From a virus (lineage: Duplodnaviria; Caudoviricetes), in the IMG/VR virus record IMGVR_UViG_3300037518_000144, positions 1 through 57,756 of that record: a stretch of DNA of 57,756 nt. The stretch is one strand, 5' to 3'. Under the pieces are notes generated by a model. It did not search any database. It was given only the letters and a program-made list of their open reading frames with translations, and was not told the DNA's origin. The translations under genes and the position numbers were made by a program. This document shows, piece after piece, positions 5,226-47,174 of this stretch (positions are counted from its first letter, which is position 1; each line of letters opens with the position of its first letter).

Positions 5226-5746
5226 TTAACGCCTACCCCTAAAAGGTTGTAGTCACCGAGTCTCTGTGTCTTCACCTTCGCAAAGCCCGCCGCCTCCAGG
5301 GCAACCTTAAGTGTTTCCGAAATGAACCCAGTTCGATGAAGCATGTGCGGATTGTCCATCCCGTCGTGGCCATAAAACATATGCAGACCAGTGATCGGCC
5401 CAACGGCTGCTTCGTACAGCACTTCATTTGTCGGGCGCACGCCTTCCAAGTCTGGAACAACAATCATTGCATAACCGCCTGACGCCAGAACGCGCACAAA
5501 CTCACGTAGTGCTGAAATGCCATCAGCTGGTTTGAGATGTTCGAGCGAATGACTGCACCAAATGGCGTCGAATGGTCCGATAGCTCCAATATCGGACATG
5601 CTCGCAACAACATCAGGGGCAGTGCTTGGATCGATATCAAGCCGTGTCTCGGTGCATCCATGCAGAAACTCGGGAAGCGGTGTTTTTCCACAACCCGCAT
5701 GCAGCACACGGCGCGGCCCAGTGTATTGGACATATTGAGCGCTCAA
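5222..5746 (-). CDS. Class I SAM-dependent methyltransferase
   Basis: VLHAGCG motif I, LDID, FDAIWCSHSLEH, RVLASGG. Confidence 0.85.
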   Translation of the reverse strand: MSAQYVQYTGPRRVLHAGCGKTPLPEFLHGCTETRLDIDPSTAPDVVASMSDIGAIGPFDAIWCSHSLEHLKPADGISALREFVRVLASGGYAMIVVPDLEGVRPTNEVLYEAAVGPITGLHMFYGHDGMDNPHMLHRTGFISETLKVALEAAGFAKVKTQRLGDYNLLGVGVK

Positions 5747-6354
5747 GCACGCACCTCCGACAATATACGAGCGCCTTTCCGTAGATTTTCTGTAATCGTG
5801 ACAACGCGAAGGTTGTCTTGGTGATGCAGTCCGCCGCGACTAAGTGGCACGATGTGATCGACGTGATGCCTTATGCCGGTTTCTCGTGTCAATCTCGCGG
5901 ACTCCTCATAAAGCGCCGCGATGGCGTCAAAATTTGCGTCTGGCGGCGTTTGGCCACGAATCCGTAGAGTTCTCATGCGAGTGTGCGCATAAGAACGAAC
6001 CGGATTCTTTTTGTGCCACATCCGAGTGATGTCTAGATTCTTTTCGCGATTCTCATGCTTCCATCGCATGGAGGCAGCGAACATTTTTTGTTTGTTTTTT
6101 TCGTAGTGCTTGCGTTGCGAGGCGCGAATTTTATCTCCGTTCTTCTCTCCCCACTCACGCAAACGACGATTGCTGCGATCCCTGAACTCAGGATCTGTCC
6201 GATATCGCTCACGTTCCTTGGCGGCATTACAGGCCCTGCAAGACTGGCCTGCTCTGCCTCGTTTTGATGGAGAAAACAACTCAACTGGCCTTTCGGCGGA
6301 ACATCCCTTGCAGAATTGAGCTGCTTTCATCGCCCTTATGCCCCGCCTTTCCAA
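5743..6354 (-). CDS. HNH homing endonuclease
   Basis: CxxC..CxxC N-terminus and HVDHIVPLSRGGLHHQDNL..N. Real start probably near 6330. Confidence 0.85.
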   Translation of the reverse strand: MERRGIRAMKAAQFCKGCSAERPVELFSPSKRGRAGQSCRACNAAKERERYRTDPEFRDRSNRRLREWGEKNGDKIRASQRKHYEKNKQKMFAASMRWKHENREKNLDITRMWHKKNPVRSYAHTRMRTLRIRGQTPPDANFDAIAALYEESARLTRETGIRHHVDHIVPLSRGGLHHQDNLRVVTITENLRKGARILSEVRA

Positions 6355-7565: not shown

Positions 7566-8765
7566 TCAGCCGTCAGCGTGCAATCGGCTAGCGAGTTGTG
7601 CGCGCAAGGTAGCCGATCCAAACAGAACGTCTATCCTGCACGGGTGTTGGTCATTGTTGATGTCGTAGGCACGAATGATGCGCATGCTGATCCCGTCGTA
7701 GACCTCCCGAGCTGCGAACGACACTCCTTCAGGGAGGATGAGATCGGCCGTCCCGAAGCAGAACGCGTCCTTGTGATAGCCCATCGAACTAGTGAGCAAC
7801 TCACTTGCGCCAGCACCGATCTTGTTCACGGCACCGGTAGTGGTCGGACTTGCAGCTACATTCTGTGCACCCCCGCTGGTGATGATCGATGGAGAGATTG
7901 CCAGCGTCGTCGCATTTGCACCGGAGTCCGCCGTGATGACGAACTGCTGCAGTTGGCCGGTATCGATCTTCGTTTCAGGGTGTACGCGGTTGCATCCGGC
8001 AAGCGTGATCACGTCGCCCTTGAGGAACGTCGTGGTGCCCGTTCCAACCGTCAGTGACGCGCCGGTCTGGTTGGCGCCGTTGACGTTGTACAGCGTGTCA
8101 CCCTCGACAGCCGTGCCGGTCGTGTGATCCAACACATGTGTGGACTGGAAGAAGTCGAACATGGCCGACTTACCCATACGGCCTTCCTTGTACTGCATGG
8201 ACAGAACATCCTGCGGATTGAACAATCCCTTGATCTGATCCACCAGTCCGACCTGATGCGTGGTAGACAACAGCATGGTGCGCTGCTCGTCTTCTGGCGC
8301 CAGGTTATCGTCCAGCTTCTGCTTCGCCAGCAGCACGCTTCTCAGCGTCGGCGCAACGCCATTCTGGTTGACGAGGTTGTACACATCCTTGTACCTCGCA
8401 GCCCAGACGGTGGACTCCATGTAAGCGGCAATCGTCGCCATCGCCGGTGTGATGATGCGCTCTGAGAACTGATCCAGATCCAGCGTCAGTTCCTGCGACG
8501 TGAAATTGATATCAACACCCGCCTGGCTGCTGATCTGGAAGGTAACGTTGCGTTCGACGTTGTCCTGCACGCTGAGGGTGCGACCGGTGCGAATCGTGTA
8601 CTGATTGGGCAAACGGATGCGCAAGGTGTCGCCGATTTTCGCGCCTTCCTGTGCGAACTGGTTATCGTAGCCGCGGTTGATTGAACCGATGAATCTGAGT
8701 TTCTGGTGGAGGACTCGCAAAGCCTCCCTTGTGATCTGATCGACAGTGAGAGTTGTATTGGACAC
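7566..8765 (-). CDS. Major capsid protein (P22 coat family)
   Basis: 399 aa with KIGDTLRIRLP and RIDVLFG motifs. Follows the scaffold gene. Confidence 0.92.
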   Translation of the reverse strand: MSNTTLTVDQITREALRVLHQKLRFIGSINRGYDNQFAQEGAKIGDTLRIRLPNQYTIRTGRTLSVQDNVERNVTFQISSQAGVDINFTSQELTLDLDQFSERIITPAMATIAAYMESTVWAARYKDVYNLVNQNGVAPTLRSVLLAKQKLDDNLAPEDEQRTMLLSTTHQVGLVDQIKGLFNPQDVLSMQYKEGRMGKSAMFDFFQSTHVLDHTTGTAVEGDTLYNVNGANQTGASLTVGTGTTTFLKGDVITLAGCNRVHPETKIDTGQLQQFVITADSGANATTLAISPSIITSGGAQNVAASPTTTGAVNKIGAGASELLTSSMGYHKDAFCFGTADLILPEGVSFAAREVYDGISMRIIRAYDINNDQHPCRIDVLFGSATLRAQLASRLHADG

Positions 8766-42846: not shown

Positions 42847-43061
42847 TCTGGTCACTGTGGCAGTTCCCCTTGAGGGATACGACGCGGAATGTCGCGCAAT
42901 CAACGCAGTGATATTCCCGGAAGTATGTACCTAACGAAACACGGTATGTAGATCCATTTTTGCTTATTTTCTGCTGATCCGAGCCAAATCCGCTGTTATG
43001 TGAAATTAGTGCCAAGTGGGAAAAACTTGCACGTCAGGTTTACTCATGTATAATGTTTCCC

Positions 43062-44036
43062 ATGACGAAGCAGACCAAAATTCAGAACCGCTCAACCAAG
43101 GGCGACAAGATCATTCAGGCTCTGCCAATTGCTTGTGCCGATGAAGCAGCAGCCGTGCTCTTCATGGAAGAACAGCGTTGGGGCTCGGATGTCTGCTGCC
43201 CCCGCTGCGGTTCGCTCGATGTCTACCAGATGCGGGACAGCAAGACCGGCCAGCGTCAGAAGAACTTCCGTTGGCTCTGCCGTGACTGCAAGAAGGCTGG
43301 CGAGAAGAGCCAGTACACCGTACGAACGGCCACCGTGTTCGAAGATTCAAAGATTGAGCTTCGTCACTGGTGCTTTGCCTTCTGGCGCGCCTCTACTTCC
43401 AAGAAGGGCGTTAGCGCCCTTGAGATACACCGCCAGACCGGCCTTGCTTACAAGTCCTGCCTGTTCATGCTCCACCGTATCCGCTTCGCGATGGCACCAG
43501 TGGACGGCAATCCATTGACCGGCATTGTCGAAGTAGACGAGACGTATGTTGGCGGCAAGCCCCGCCGTAAGTTCGATGGTTCAGTCGGCGAGCGCACTGC
43601 AAAGTCTGCTGTGCTCGGCATCGTGGAACGTGGTGGCCGCATCCGTCCAATGGTCATTGCCGACGTAACGGCTGAAACCCTCCATGCCGAAATCCTGAAG
43701 AACGTAGACCGTCGCGCCCGCATCATGACGGACGAGCACGTGAGCTACACCGGCATCGGCAAGCACTTCGAAGGCGGTCACGAGACGGTCAAGCACAGCG
43801 CCTACGAGTACGCACGCGGCGATGTCACCACGAACACCATCGAAGGCTTCTTCTCAATCCTGAAGCGCGGCCTTAACGGCATCTACCACAGCGTCAGCAA
43901 GAAACACTTGCACAGGTACCTTGCGGAATATGAGTTCAGGTACAACCACAGGGAGCTTGATGACGGCGCAAGAACCTCAGCCGCTATCAAAGCATCAGAA
44001 GGCAAGCGCCTGATGTATAAAGGACCGGCTGGTTAA
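43062..44036 (+). CDS. tnp: IS1595-family (ISXO2-like) DDE transposase
   Basis: Zn ribbon CPRCG..CRDC, VEVDETYVGG, IMTDE, NTIEGFFS, HLHRYLAEYEFRYN. TTGCAC-16-TATAAT promoter at 43027-54. Confidence 0.95.
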   Translation: MTKQTKIQNRSTKGDKIIQALPIACADEAAAVLFMEEQRWGSDVCCPRCGSLDVYQMRDSKTGQRQKNFRWLCRDCKKAGEKSQYTVRTATVFEDSKIELRHWCFAFWRASTSKKGVSALEIHRQTGLAYKSCLFMLHRIRFAMAPVDGNPLTGIVEVDETYVGGKPRRKFDGSVGERTAKSAVLGIVERGGRIRPMVIADVTAETLHAEILKNVDRRARIMTDEHVSYTGIGKHFEGGHETVKHSAYEYARGDVTTNTIEGFFSILKRGLNGIYHSVSKKHLHRYLAEYEFRYNHRELDDGARTSAAIKASEGKRLMYKGPAG

Positions 44037-44063
44037 TGAACAGCGTTTGTGCCACGATAGGTA

Positions 44064-44178
44064 TACGGGTGGCGGGATACGAACCCGCATGGGGTTGCTT
44101 GGGGGAGGCGCGAACCGTCCCTAGCAAGAGCCCGGCAGCGTCCAAAGCTGCTGTGTCTACCAGTTTCACCACACCCGC
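44064..44178 (-). tRNA. Atypical tRNA: Leu-like body, UGG (Pro) anticodon, ~46-nt variable arm
   Basis: Acceptor GCGGGTG/CACCCGT-A; D arm GTG-AAACTGGTAGA-CAC; anticodon arm GCAGC-TTTGGAC-GCTGC; T arm GCGGG-TTCGTAT-CCCGC. No encoded CCA. Confidence 0.75.
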
Positions 44179-44205
44179 ACAGAGAGTGCTCAAACGCTCT
44201 CGGGT

Positions 44206-44257
44206 CAGGGTGTGGAGGGGTCATGGCCGCGAAACCTTACCCTCCACACCCTGCTTT
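44206..44257. other. 14-bp perfect hairpin next to the tRNA 5' end
   Basis: CAGGGTGTGGAGGG / CCCTCCACACCCTG followed by CTTTT. Confidence 0.6.
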
Positions 44258-44298
44258 TACGGCCGCCGGGTCGGCCTATCTACTTATCATCATAATCC

Positions 44299-44781
44299 TC
44301 ACTCCTTTGCTCGCTGGGCGGCCAATCGTTTCTCGATTGCACTAATTGCATCCGGCAGATGTCTCTTCATTTTCCAGAACCTGCCCTGTCCTGTTCTTTT
44401 GTTGTCGTAGACTTGGCTTGGATTGAGACCACAGTCCACGATAAGCCGATTAATTATGGCGCTACGTCCACCAAGTGCTTTCGGCATAGTGATGCCCAAA
44501 GCTGCCATCATCGTTCCCGACCCAGCCCCCTGCGGTCCGGCGTCTCGAATTGCTTTCAAAAAAGCGATTGCAGCAATTGGAGTCCAGTCCGGGAAGCTGC
44601 CTTCTGGCTCATCCTCGGTACGCGGTTGTTTGTTTGCGTGGATGATCGGCGCTCGCGCTGCCGATGGAGGCGGCACAGTGCTGGCGTTCCGAAGCTGTCG
44701 ATACAACTCGGCGGCTTCTGCAGCTGTGGCTGCTTCGAATTCCATTCCATCAAAATTGAGTTTGATACCCATGCTTGCCAT
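44299..44781 (-). CDS. Hypothetical passenger protein (possible winged-helix C-terminus)
   Basis: 160-aa ORF with protein-like composition. Confidence 0.6.
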   Translation of the reverse strand: MASMGIKLNFDGMEFEAATAAEAAELYRQLRNASTVPPPSAARAPIIHANKQPRTEDEPEGSFPDWTPIAAIAFLKAIRDAGPQGAGSGTMMAALGITMPKALGGRSAIINRLIVDCGLNPSQVYDNKRTGQGRFWKMKRHLPDAISAIEKRLAAQRAKE

Positions 44782-44833
44782 GCTATCAGGAACTTCTGGT
44801 ACAGAGCAAGCTCAAGACATGACATGAGAGTAC

Positions 44834-44998
44834 ATGATGCCGCCAGAGCCACAGAAGCGATCAAGAACAAAGAAGCGCGGGCCACCGCCTGATCGGGTAA
44901 AGATCAAAGGCGACTGGACGGAAGCAATGAAGAAAGCTCTAGAGAAAAAGCGCCCTACTGGCGGCTGGCCGGAGCCTGAGAAGAAGCCGAGTAAGTAA
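44834..44998 (+). CDS. Small basic passenger protein, 54 aa
   Basis: GPPPDRVKIKGDWTEAMKKALEKKRPTGGWP. Below the ORF-track cutoff. Confidence 0.55.
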   Translation: MMPPEPQKRSRTKKRGPPPDRVKIKGDWTEAMKKALEKKRPTGGWPEPEKKPSK

Positions 44999-45157
44999 GC
45001 TCTTCGCGCAACACCTTAACTTCATCAGGTGCGGAAATACCGATTCGAACGCTCACCAGTCCGCTGCCCGCATGCTCGATGATGCGAGTTACGGTTAGGG
45101 TGATGTCTTTGCCGATCTGAATGGATTCGCCGGGAACGGCCGGGAAAGGATGAGCAT
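44955..45157 (-). pseudogene. csrA: csrA/rsmA homolog, frameshifted
   Basis: GGAGG RBS and MLILSR, then GESIQIGKDITLTV..VRIGISAPDEVKVLREEL in another frame. Confidence 0.8.
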
Positions 45158-45302
45158 AGAACCTCCGTGTTCGAGTGAAACCGATTCATAAATCGCGGGT
45201 GACTATGCTACAGTGCGCCGCGTTACGCCTCCCGCTTCTTCCCTCCGGTCGGGCGCGGGTGAGCGTAACGAGAGATTTGCAGCTTGTAAAGCTCCAGACA
45301 AC

Positions 45303-45328
45303 AAAAAACCCGCCGAAGCGGGTTCTTT
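45303..45328. terminator. Terminator-like hairpin immediately 5' of the tRNA
   Basis: AAAAAACCCGC-CGAA-GCGGGTTCTTT. Confidence 0.6.
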
Positions 45329-45330
45329 GC

Positions 45331-45420
45331 GGTCAGGTGGCAGAGTGGTCGAATGCAACTTCCTCGCACGGAATTTCGCTTTTGGCGACGCCGCAGGTTC
45401 GAATCCTGTCCTGACCTCCA
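45331..45420 (+). tRNA. Atypical tRNA: Ser-like class II body, CGC (Ala) anticodon, U73
   Basis: Acceptor GGTCAGG/CCTGACC-T-CCA; D arm GCA-GAGTGGTCGAA-TGC; loop CT-CGC-AC on a weak stem; variable arm TCGC-TTTTG-GCGA; T arm GCAGG-TTCGAAT-CCTGT. Confidence 0.78.
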
Positions 45421-45426
45421 CATCCT

Positions 45427-45457
45427 ACCGCCCCGAACTTCTTAGGGGCGGTCTTTT
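45427..45457 (+). terminator. Intrinsic terminator after the tRNA
   Basis: ACCGCCCC/GGGGCGGT followed by CTTTT. Confidence 0.7.
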
Positions 45458-45620
45458 AATCTACCAGCGTTTTCGTCTCTTGCCACGTTACGTTTTACGT
45501 ACCGTGCGATTCGTCACACCACTTCTCAACAGCAACAGTATATTCAACACGAGCCAGAGAGCAATAGTTTAATTGCCGTTAATCTTGCTTATTCTCTCTT
45601 AACGTCTAATATTGCCAGCT

Positions 45621-45839
45621 ATGGCCAAGGTTCAGCGGTTTTTCGATGATCGCGACGTTACCCTGAAGGTCAACGACACGATCTACGAGTATCTGGAAGA
45701 CCTTGGAAAGACGGGCCTATACGGCAATACTCACGGCCAAGCCGCCGAAATCGTTCTCCGGATAGGACTCAAGCAACTGATTGACTCGGGGCAACTGAAA
45801 CCCAAGGAGCATCAGCTGGCAAGGGAAGCTGGGAGCTAG
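45621..45839 (+). CDS. Small putative RHH-like regulator
   Basis: Beta-alpha-alpha pattern (VTLKV..YLEDL..GLYG..AAE). Upstream of the TA pair. Confidence 0.55.
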   Translation: MAKVQRFFDDRDVTLKVNDTIYEYLEDLGKTGLYGNTHGQAAEIVLRIGLKQLIDSGQLKPKEHQLAREAGS

Positions 45840-45856
45840 CTAACGGTGGAGCGCCT

Positions 45857-46405
45857 ATGATTTTCACCGCAAGTAAAGTAGCCCAAATGGCCGCCGTATT
45901 CGCCCGCAAGGAAGGTGGCGCGATCAATGTCCTGAAACTCGCGAAGCTCCTCTATCTCGCAGATCGCGAATCGATGAATCGATATTCTGCGCCGATTTCA
46001 TTCGACAAGTTTGTCGCTTTGAAGGATGGGCCTATGTTGTCAAAGGCCCGCGATCTTGTTCAGGGAAAGATCGTGTCGGAGGCGTGGTCTTATTGGATGT
46101 CGCCACGCAAGGGACTAAATGTCGCGCTCGCACACGAGTTTACCCGTGACGATCTGGACCAACTGAGTGATGCAGATTTAGAAATTCTGGACTCAGTTTG
46201 GGACGAACTTGGAGCGATGGATCGCTTCGAGTTGCGGGACTACGTTCACGAGCATTGCCCCGAGTGGAAGAATCCTGGCGATACATCAAAGCCGATAAAC
46301 GAGGCAGAAATATTTAGAGCGCTCGGCCTGCCCGCAGCGGAAGCGAAAAACATGGCGGAGTCAGTTCGAATTGAGCGCAGACTCGATAGGATTTTCGGAC
46401 GCTAG
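45857..46405 (+). CDS. Panacea-domain (SocA/DUF4065) antitoxin
   Basis: KLAKLLYLADR..GP..LS..D.EIL..H..PEW. Confidence 0.85.
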   Translation: MIFTASKVAQMAAVFARKEGGAINVLKLAKLLYLADRESMNRYSAPISFDKFVALKDGPMLSKARDLVQGKIVSEAWSYWMSPRKGLNVALAHEFTRDDLDQLSDADLEILDSVWDELGAMDRFELRDYVHEHCPEWKNPGDTSKPINEAEIFRALGLPAAEAKNMAESVRIERRLDRIFGR

Positions 46406-46414
46406 TCGGACCCC

Positions 46415-46801
46415 ATGTTCGTTGCTAGGAAACGGGGAACATTGTTGTATCCCGCCGGACCTTCGACTAATCCACATGAGATGCACTTGTTTGTGATCGT
46501 GACGGAGCCTTACGGGCCAGCCCGACAACTCATCATGCTGCCGATATGCAGTATCGAAGACGGTAAGTTTCACGACCCGGCCTGCATCATCCACGTTGGG
46601 GACCACAAATTCATTAAGTGGCCGAGTTACGTTGCTTACTCCAAAGTCAGGGAGGAATTTGCGGATGGGCTTGCAAAGGGCGTTGCGAATGGTGGCGTCT
46701 CAGATCGCGGACTGATCGACGAGGTAGTCTTCGATCGCATCTTGTCAGGGGCGAAAGTAACAAAGCACATCAAGCCATTCGCCAAGAAGAAGCTTGCTTG
46801 A
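46415..46801 (+). CDS. Putative PemK/MazF-like toxin
   Basis: HLFVIVT..PICS..DPACII..GDH.FI..SYV.Y, SH3-barrel-like. Directly downstream of Panacea. Confidence 0.55.
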   Translation: MFVARKRGTLLYPAGPSTNPHEMHLFVIVTEPYGPARQLIMLPICSIEDGKFHDPACIIHVGDHKFIKWPSYVAYSKVREEFADGLAKGVANGGVSDRGLIDEVVFDRILSGAKVTKHIKPFAKKKLA

Positions 46802-47174
46802 ACCAGCAAACGCCACCCGGTGCTGGAAAACGGGCAATGTGGGGAAAGCCGGGCCACCCCAGAACCGCAGAAAATTCGTCCCGCCGCTCCACAGCTCGCG
46901 CTAGTAGCCACCGGGCCGCGAGCCCACCCACCATCCAGTGCTCATACAGTGCTTGGCGAAGTGGGAAATCCCTCCCGCATCCCACCTTTCCGGCAGGCAT
47001 CTTTGTAGATGCCTAAATGTACCTTAACCCGTTGATTCTATATGGGGTTTCGTTAGGTACATACTTCCGCGAAGTTGATCTACCGCCGGCTCTTCAGTAT
47101 TGGACCGAGCGCATGGAAGAAATCCGGGATTGGCAAGCGCGTAGAGCGGCAAATCAACCCAAACCGGAGCAGTC

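Follow-up and report, generated by a model that had tools for sequence, protein, structure and literature searches.

A Phage-Borne IS1595-Family Element from a Group of Insertion Sequences with a Recurrent Leucine-Type tRNA Bearing a Proline Anticodon

Introduction

Transporter insertion sequences (tIS), i.e., elements with passenger genes, are known from the IS1595 family (Siguier, Gagnevin and Chandler 2009, cited in PMC8496243). Here we describe an element of this kind at positions 42918–47069 of the IMG/VR virus record IMGVR_UViG_3300037518_000144 (Duplodnaviria; Caudoviricetes). The whole record, 57,756 bases long and complete according to CheckV, was analyzed and is referred to below as the window. 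With the described tIS the element shares a zinc-ribbon DDE transposase, short terminal repeats, 8-bp duplications in its relatives and passengers between the repeats. In contrast to the IS1595 literature searched, the group to which it belongs has a recurrent tRNA gene near the core and a conserved small basic protein; no tRNA carried by an IS1595 element was described in that literature, of which the supplementary material was not covered.

The closest precedent for the tRNA itself, in the literature searched, comes from work on Acidobacteria and soil metagenomes (Mukai et al., 2017, PMC5389517), in which allo-tRNAs and polycistrons of irregular tRNAs were described and whose Supplementary Figures S5–S7 may show related tRNAs. 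According to that paper, allo-tRNAs have 8/4 or 9/3 acceptor/T stems, a D arm like that of tRNA-Sec, Ser or Ala identity and anticodons for 35 codons. The element tRNA is like them in its class-II shape, in an anticodon that does not fit the body, and in that allo-tRNAs occur near toxin-antitoxin genes and a transposon-related open reading frame (ORF); their function is also as uncertain as here, lying between missense suppression and non-coding roles (PMC5389517). It is unlike them, as far as they are described there, in having 7/5 stems, a leucine-type D arm, A73, a near-fixed NGG anticodon and a place inside a defined insertion sequence.

A third relevant system is PanA-PanT, in which a DUF4065/Panacea antitoxin is encoded directly upstream of a small toxin, three-gene loci being allowed (Kurata et al., 2022, PMC8832971). 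The PanA partners reported there include PemK-domain proteins, and validated ones are predicted to be EndoA/PemK/MazF-like.

A first-pass annotation of the window had suggested that tRNAs, csrA and toxin-antitoxin genes form a single mobile module in this element, which would act in mistranslation, as a tRNA decoy or in defense or anti-defense. The present analysis confirms the underlying observation and supports the interpretation in part. The interest lies in a tRNA conserved in the element family and in its tie to a transposase codon, the toxin-antitoxin pair being of a known kind and a second tRNA-like gene (tRNA 2) doubtful.

Results

The Element and Its Terminal Repeats

Transposase and repeats alike place the element, which lies in a phage genome, among the transporter insertion sequences of the IS1595 family. 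Its ends and core genes are:

42918–42940, + strand: left terminal inverted repeat, 23 bp, perfect reverse complement of 47047–47069
43053–44036, + strand: IS1595-family transposase, 327 aa, N-terminal zinc ribbon and DDE domain (PF12762, PF12760)
44064–44178, − strand: tRNA 1, leucine-type class-II tRNA with anticodon UGG (Pro), Rfam tRNA 47.2 bits
44834–44998, + strand: small basic protein, 54 aa, motif GP.P.RVK..GDW..A..KAL.K.RP..GWP, tblastn matches in 70 of 127 loci
47047–47069, − strand: right terminal inverted repeat, 23 bp

The left repeat, CGGAAGTATGTACCTAACGAAAC at 42918–42940, recurs as its reverse complement at 47047–47069 without a mismatch, the outer ends lying 4,152 bp apart, just as the first-pass annotation had it (perfect 23-bp repeats around 4.15 kb). 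Beyond this the repeats continue imperfectly to 34 nt at 88%. By our own arithmetic a perfect 23-bp inverted repeat within 6 kb is expected by chance at about 1e-7. The exact 23-bp repeat had no match in viral contigs. Its core, GGAAGTATGTAC, is common to the terminal repeats of 55 related elements that have both repeat cores, of the form GGAAGTATGTACTT, and are 1,630–4,565 bp long. The transposase ORF is intact and its domain matches are full-length (PF12762, E 2e-40, profile positions 2–153 of 153; zinc ribbon PF12760, E 3e-9), in agreement with the family assignment made at first pass.

A Class-II tRNA Is a Recurrent Part of the Element Family

Relatives of the transposase were sampled from genomes (39 loci), metagenomes (the best 80 of 508 matches) and viral contigs (8 loci). 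The metagenome set contains near-duplicates, which were removed only in a clustering at 90% identity, and locus counts given below take no account of shared ancestry. The closest relative, L043, has a transposase 82% identical to that of the window, and about 80 metagenome loci are 55–68% identical. By record title the carriers are Acidobacteriota, Planctomycetota and Gemmatimonadota, and phage records are found as well. The table of loci holds 103 entries, with L023–L042 and L127–L130 omitted because their transposase match is partial or at most 43% identical; these omitted loci gave no match to the tRNA model described next.

ARAGORN finds tRNAs of 82–97 nt with anticodon UGG adjoining many of the related transposases. 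A covariance model, R1, was built from 21 divergent element tRNAs; in its consensus fold the acceptor stem comprises 7 bp and the T stem 5 bp, and 20 of its 23 predicted pairs show compensatory changes. A tRNA of this type is present in 60 of the 103 tabulated loci (copies with oversized arms included), in 57 of the 86 loci that reach 55% transposase identity and, among complete repeat-bounded relatives, in 39 of 55, and it always lies between the repeats wherever repeats were located. The smallest elements, L106 (1,630 bp) and L119, contain the transposase, an R1-type tRNA and a region matching the small basic protein, and hardly any space is left for other genes. The first-pass annotation had named, as an outcome that would refute it, related elements devoid of tRNAs or with nothing but decaying tRNA fragments; the related elements instead carry intact mismatched tRNAs, conserved in fold and in their link to the element. 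To judge from these comparisons, the UGG tRNA accompanies the transposase irrespective of the cargo and is a fixed part of the element, not loose cargo.

The window copy, tRNA 1, is 115 nt long and lies on the strand opposite to the transposase, 27 nt past its stop. It folds at minimum energy as a clean cloverleaf with a 7-bp acceptor and a 5-bp T stem, has the anticodon loop UU-UGG-AC, a variable arm of about 43 nt, A73, G1-U72 and A37, and encodes no CCA. With 78.5 bits against R1 it is a member of the family, although ARAGORN misses it, as it misses other element tRNAs or labels them tRNA-Pro or tRNA-Ala. Of the hallmarks of allo-tRNAs it has the long variable arm and the unfit anticodon and lacks the 12-bp branch (8/4 or 9/3). 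Both class II tRNA genes with non-cognate anticodons announced at first pass are recovered by Rfam, this one (UGG, 47.2 bits) and tRNA 2 (CGC, 45.0 bits).

Among 61 copies of R1 type the anticodon is UGG in 51, AGG in 7, GUC in 2 and UGC in 1 (NGG in 58 of 61). A73 is invariant and U33 is found in at least 90% of 21 aligned copies, the variable arm is between 11 and about 50 nt long, and C1-G72 (L083, L087) or G37 occurs in a minority of the relatives' tRNAs. Several element tRNAs have A34 (AGG in L046, L049, L054, L065, L044, L045 and L090; AGU in L103 and L104). A at position 34 is rare in bacterial tRNAs outside tRNA-Arg(ACG). Variable arms of 40–50 nt that fold as a long hairpin belong to one clade (tRNA 1 of the window, L004, L048, L057, L064, L076, L080, L082, L113), in which an inner motif, CTCTTRRC...GGGAC, is common by eye and might be a binding site.

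The placement of the tRNA bears on the idea that these genes are non-decoding, i.e., that their transcripts serve as regulatory or processing signals, or as decoys or spare parts against tRNA-cutting toxins and defense nucleases, the adjacent MazF-fold toxin included. Downstream of the transposase and on the other strand is where 39 of 60 loci have the tRNA, mostly 12–70 nt after the transposase stop, which together with the wide range of variable-arm lengths would suit such a role; irregular tRNAs near toxin-antitoxin genes, some of them inactive in translation, have had such roles proposed for them (PMC5389517). On the other hand, it is located upstream in the remaining loci, at about 1.1 kb and again on the opposite strand in 14 of them and close by on the same strand in 7, and this variation in position and strand argues for a role in trans and against one in cis. 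A decoy, moreover, would need neither the anticodon, U33 and A73, all of which are kept, nor a transposase codon that varies with the anticodon (see below), and the tRNA occurs without the toxin genes of the window in nearly all relatives (PanA in 1 and the MazF-fold ORF in 0 of 127 loci). No specific support was obtained for the decoy and defense readings offered at first pass, and we consider a non-decoding function improbable.

A Leucine-Type Body with a Proline Anticodon

By sequence, the body of the element tRNA is of the tRNA-Leu type. It has the class-II shape, the D arm (GTGGYGRAA..GGTAGAC) and the A73 of bacterial tRNA-Leu, and R1, though trained on element tRNAs alone, scores host tRNA-Leu genes at 75–84 bits, nearly as high as its training set. 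Ten of the best 12 R1 loci in five genomes are tRNA-Leu genes according to ARAGORN (UAG, UAA, CAA, GAG). Unlike bacterial tRNA-Leu, which has a leucine anticodon (NAG or NAA), the element tRNA has UGG (as in the window) or AGG in nearly all copies, and a variable arm that can reach about 50 nt. The anticodon of tRNA 1 is that of a tRNA-Pro (NGG, with G35 and G36), whereas the variable arm of about 43 nt, G1-U72 and A37 of the window copy are not those of a class-I tRNA-Pro; the usual marks of the E. coli tRNA-Pro are C1-G72, G37 and a class-I shape with a short variable loop. According to the E. coli identity rules, A73 and the D arm fit leucyl-tRNA synthetase, while G35, G36 and A73 fit prolyl-tRNA synthetase. 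The body (A73, leucine-type D arm, G1-U72, A37) points to leucyl-tRNA synthetase, and the conserved G35-G36-A73, taken with the cognate codons at proline positions, point to proline.

Transposases of tRNA-Bearing Elements Keep CCA or CCU at Pro25

Transposase codons were compared in an alignment of 84 genes, drawn from 92 loci at least 50% identical, the window included; L016, L051, L061, L062, L064, L065, L112 and L125 were omitted as a stop was met in frame. Codon 25 of the window transposase is CCA (Pro) and falls in alignment column 197, which is proline in 82 of 84 genes, those of loci without the tRNA included. At this invariant Pro25, transposases of tRNA-bearing elements keep CCA or CCU, never CCG or CCC: elements with a UGG tRNA have CCA (39) or CCT (7), those with an AGG tRNA have CCT (6 of 6), and loci without such a tRNA have CCA (19), CCG (6) or CCT (3). 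Outside this column, these genes use CCG more often than any other proline codon (45% in UGG elements, 72% in AGG elements). After clustering at 90% identity, none of the 39 clusters that have an NGG tRNA shows CCG in column 197, vs. 5 of the 18 that lack one (Fisher test about 0.002, by our own arithmetic and uncorrected for ancestry). In the transposase tree L090 (AGG, CCT) stands alone amid UGG/CCA neighbors. A weaker leaning of the same kind is seen in the columns of Pro154 and Pro325 and, in the small ORF, at its first conserved proline. An extended pairing of the anticodon loop with the bases around codon 25 was considered and rejected, since the base after the codon varies (by eye).

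These data also bear on what the tRNA would carry. One explanation is that it is charged with leucine by a leucyl-tRNA synthetase that ignores the anticodon, and that its function is proteome-wide Pro-to-Leu mistranslation at CCA/CCU, or a private recoding of the element's own proteins. In its favor are the leucine-type body, shown by the high R1 scores of host tRNA-Leu genes (75–84 bits), the invariance of A73 in the 21 aligned copies, the absence of C1-G72 and G37 from the window copy and the precedent of class-II allo-tRNAs with non-cognate anticodons that inserted Ser or Ala in E. coli (PMC5389517). In the tRNA-bearing transposases, however, leucine appears in homologues at 0.8% for 216 tRNA-cognate codons vs. 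0.9% for 310 other proline codons, the corresponding values for L/I/M/V/F together are 8.3% and 8.4%, and no alignment column pairs a cognate codon with more than 30% leucine. A private Pro-to-Leu recoding of the transposase is rejected on these grounds, the comparative data showing no leucine signal at cognate codons. They would fit either proline insertion or a harmful leucine insertion. It also counts against leucine charging that column 197 is proline in genes without the tRNA too, and that the near-fixed NGG would need a separate explanation if the synthetase ignores the anticodon. On the whole we find the leucine-charged reading unlikely, though less so than a non-decoding role.

Several related elements carry other tRNAs between their repeats. 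L116 and L120 have two class-I tRNA-Thr genes, UGU and CGU (5501–5577, 5599–5675). L094 has a tRNA-Arg(UCG) and a short-armed tRNA-Pro(UGG) (5741–5817, 5831–5907), and L103 a tRNA-Thr(AGU) and a leucine-type tRNA with anticodon GUC (5517–5590, 5619–5705). The sole CGA codon of the L094 transposase is at the invariant Arg144, and the codon of the invariant Thr94 is ACT in L103 and L104, which have tRNA-Thr(AGU), and ACA in L116 and L120, which have tRNA-Thr(UGU). These matches were noted post hoc and are weak hints, because ACT or ACA is found in 14 of 84 genes at the Thr94 column. L122 has a class-II tRNA with anticodon CAA and U73 (5687–5774), 5 nt before its UGG tRNA; the sole TTG codon of its transposase falls where 79 of 84 genes encode Phe or Tyr.

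Other Genes of the Element

Between tRNA 1 and the right end the following further features are found:

44206–44253, no strand: inverted repeat, 14 bp, perfect, 20-nt loop; separates tRNA 1 from the 160-aa ORF and is followed on the + strand by CTTTTAC
44299–44781, − strand: 160-aa ORF of no known family (no Pfam or NCBIfam match, nothing meaningful in PHROGs)
44955–45157, − strand: csrA homologue with a frameshift near codon 9
45331–45420, + strand: tRNA 2, class-II tRNA-like gene with anticodon CGC (Ala codon GCG); ARAGORN tRNA-Ala(cgc), 90 nt; Rfam 45.0 bits
45612–45839, + strand: 75-aa ORF, first gene of a three-gene operon
45857–46405, + strand: PanA antitoxin, SocA/Panacea domain, 182 aa
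46415–46801, + strand: 128-aa ORF with a predicted MazF/PemK fold (AlphaFold and Foldseek)

The 54-aa small basic protein occurs with or without the tRNA, and an alignment of 42 copies shows no variation at G16, P17, W28 and P41. It has no family in Pfam, NCBIfam or PHROGs and its Atlas clusters are nameless. AlphaFold gives one helix at 28–37, with a mean predicted local distance difference test score (pLDDT) of 76 and a predicted template modeling (TM) score (pTM) of 0.29. Its distribution among the loci marks it as a core gene of the element group. The 160-aa ORF has homologues by tblastn in 3 of 127 loci, L043 (53%), L088 and L091, at the same position; its C-terminal half is possibly a winged helix (Atlas structures at a TM-score of about 0.4, a lead only).

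The csrA homologue named at first pass has a genuine CsrA domain and a broken reading frame. The Pfam CsrA match (E 2.6e-11) is in the frame of 44955–45131 and begins at profile position 9, and since the ATG at 45157 is in another frame than the domain, the gene is frameshifted; translation from that ATG meets stops. The letters are identical in contigs of four runs. A pseudogene would be the simplest reading, recoding the alternative; programmed frameshifting was rejected, no slippery heptamer being found by eye.

The second tRNA-like gene, tRNA 2, has perfect acceptor and T arms, U3-A70 (G3-U70 is absent), U73 and an encoded CCA. Its anticodon arm, as read by Rfam, has a 5-bp stem with two non-standard pairs, a C-A mismatch and a G-U pair, and in the minimum-energy fold the acceptor and T arms are retained, whereas the anticodon stem has 4 bp and its loop 6 nt. 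With only 33 bits against R1 it is not a member of that family, and a search for relatives in all loci by nhmmer and blastn gave matches confined to the T arm. Nearest in type is the CAA tRNA of L122, with which it has U73 and a GAGTGG D arm in common. GC-rich hairpins with T-runs flank it by eye at 45303–45328 and 45430–45455, neither listed by a simple terminator scan; the promoter/terminator scan gave fewer sites than shuffles. Probably tRNA 2 is an impaired orphan of uncertain function.

In the three-gene operon the Panacea antitoxin reported at first pass is clear (PF13274, E 1.7e-20; phrog_1281, E 6.9e-26). The gap between PanA and the 128-aa ORF is 9 nt, an arrangement that qualifies as Panacea (a DUF4065/SocA_Panacea gene less than 100 nt from a small gene), and the PanA N-terminus, MIFTASKVAQ (45857–45886), resembles the MIFSEQKVAQ restored for the PanA of P. 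moraviensis, whose partner is MazF-like (PMC8832971). The PemK-like character ascribed to the 128-aa ORF holds at the level of the fold and not at that of a Pfam match. The AlphaFold model (pLDDT 97.3, pTM 0.89) was compared with the PDB by Foldseek, and the best matches listed are all MazF/PemK-family chains (TM-score 0.50–0.67, E from 5.7e-4), whereas Pfam PemK (PF02452) matches neither the ORF nor any of 55 aligned relatives. An exhaustive search gave 707 representatives of its homologues at E ≤ 0.001. The 128-aa ORF is a probable toxin neutralized by PanA. This predicted pair differs from the PanA partners as published (PMC8832971) in that the likeness to PemK is one of fold alone and in that the first gene, the 75-aa ORF, has no family. 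The latter, annotated at first pass as ribbon-helix-helix-like, could not be sustained as such: no meaningful match was found in Pfam, NCBIfam or PHROGs, the best being to dihydropyrimidinase with 17.9 bits vs. a cut-off of 393. Its sole relatives (32% identity over 60 aa) are inside the elements of L083 and L087.

Homologues of this cargo are nearly absent from the 127 loci (PanA in 1, the 128-aa ORF in 0, csrA in 0). In L043 the same order of transposase, tRNA, 160-aa ORF and small ORF is followed by HicA/HicB, L006 has a PemK toxin with an upstream partner, and a ClpP-like gene and a DNA methyltransferase are found, by translations, in L007 and L013, respectively. Of the two kinds of recurrence that the first-pass annotation would have tested, that of mismatched tRNAs is borne out in relatives (57 of 86 loci) and that of the window's toxin-antitoxin genes is not. 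Because the cargo is not shared with relatives, the element is a conserved core with exchangeable cargo and no single module; a functional unit of tRNAs and toxin-antitoxin genes is rejected. Also against the integrated module proposed earlier, the UGG tRNA is independent of the cargo, csrA is broken and the CGC tRNA has a poor anticodon arm and no relatives.

Mobility and State of the Window Copy

Eight bp is the length of the target-site duplication in the IS1595 family, and a perfect 8-bp duplication flanks 48 of the 55 complete relatives. The window element has none, its flanks being GATATTCC (42910–42917) vs. CGAAGTTG (47070–47077), with 6 mismatches. This indicates later rearrangement or recombination rather than another family; a deletion next to the element or a recombination between copies probably altered the site once the insertion had taken place. 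An empty site was sought through the flanking 90-aa phage ORF in viral contigs, where it has no relative, and in contigs of four DNA runs, where no contig joins 42917 to 47070. Among the sequencing runs listed as containing this DNA, none was an RNA run. Both junctions are spanned without differences by contigs of other runs, the left in X4 and the right in X2. One X4 contig matches 46971–47069, the last 99 bases, and continues with unrelated DNA exactly after 47069; an element end in this second context fits mobility and fixes the right boundary. The phage flanks share one reading frame across the element (...VIFP | REVDLPP...), and a phage ORF may therefore be split by it. In L013 (Planctomycetaceae) the right repeat has a second, inner copy (8513–8534 and 8722–8743), and a perfect duplication, TTTCAAAA, is formed only with the outer one.

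It could be argued that the tRNA genes are chance passengers in decay and the whole element a dead relic in the phage, considering the defective anticodon arm of tRNA 2 and its lack of relatives, the frameshift in csrA and the missing target duplication. For tRNA 1 this is already contradicted by the compensatory changes of its type in 20 of 23 pairs. Of the 55 complete elements 39 contain the tRNA, mostly together with perfect target duplications, and the window copy itself has an intact transposase ORF with full-length domain matches and perfect 23-bp repeats. The relic explanation is thus highly improbable.

Discussion

The picture that we favor is that of an IS1595 transporter insertion sequence with exchangeable cargo, whose core contains a UGG tRNA that functions in translation; taken as a whole, this reading is somewhat probable. 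The conserved core would comprise the transposase, the leucine-type class-II tRNA with its proline anticodon and the small basic protein, to which the 160-aa ORF would be added in the closest relatives. The right arm would be exchangeable and here contains the frameshifted csrA, the orphan, probably impaired CGC tRNA-like gene and the three-gene Panacea/MazF-fold operon. The most likely role of this operon is to stabilize the element or the carrier of the element, or else to take part in conflict between phage and host. Selection would maintain the UGG tRNA as a functional decoder of CCA and CCU, expressed, charged and used by the ribosome. It most likely acts in translation, particularly on the element's own messages, because a tRNA kept by selection reads CCA/CCU and the transposase keeps such a codon at Pro25.

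Several observations weigh against this picture. First, the UGG tRNA is also paired with CCT, in 7 of 46 loci (3 to 6 of 37 clusters), and CCA is also found in many loci without the tRNA. Second, the codon counts, uncorrected for ancestry, contain only about three lineages of AGG cases and come in large part from the best 80 of 508 metagenome matches, near-duplicates included. Third, transposition does not depend on the tRNA, since it is missing from 16 of the 55 complete relatives, in which target duplications are fresh nonetheless. Finally, the window copy of the tRNA has an oversized variable arm, G1-U72, no CCA and no ARAGORN call.

A more specific form of the favored translational role is that the codon and the tRNA form a private pair, the element supplying the decoder for a codon that is rare in GC-rich hosts and keeping that codon at Pro25 of its transposase. 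We put this forward tentatively and regard it as possible but doubtful. If true, the amount or quality of the transposase would depend on the element's own tRNA; with a leucine-carrying tRNA, more copies would lead to more P25L protein, i.e., a copy-number brake based on mistranslation. The same principle may extend to other tRNAs (Arg, Thr) in sister elements, for which the post hoc codon matches are weak hints.

A natural disagreement between anticodon and identity is also known from the deliberately mistranslating tRNA-Pro variants of Streptomyces and the nev-tRNAs of nematodes, which are chromosomal, those of Streptomyces having a dedicated synthetase. Unlike the Streptomyces variants, the window element has no synthetase gene.

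The usual view of an insertion sequence is a transposase between two repeats, sometimes with passengers, whereas here a widespread group keeps its own tRNA, with an anticodon at odds with the tRNA body. Such a group would be a mobile source of altered decoding. Should the tRNA carry leucine, mobile DNA would spread Pro-to-Leu misreading between phyla and into phages. Should it carry proline, it would be a class-II tRNA-Pro, which to our knowledge is in no textbook set. For annotation it matters that such tRNA genes are missed by ARAGORN or mislabeled as tRNA-Pro or tRNA-Ala. The codon of Pro25 provides a testable link between the tRNA of a transposon and the making of its enzyme.

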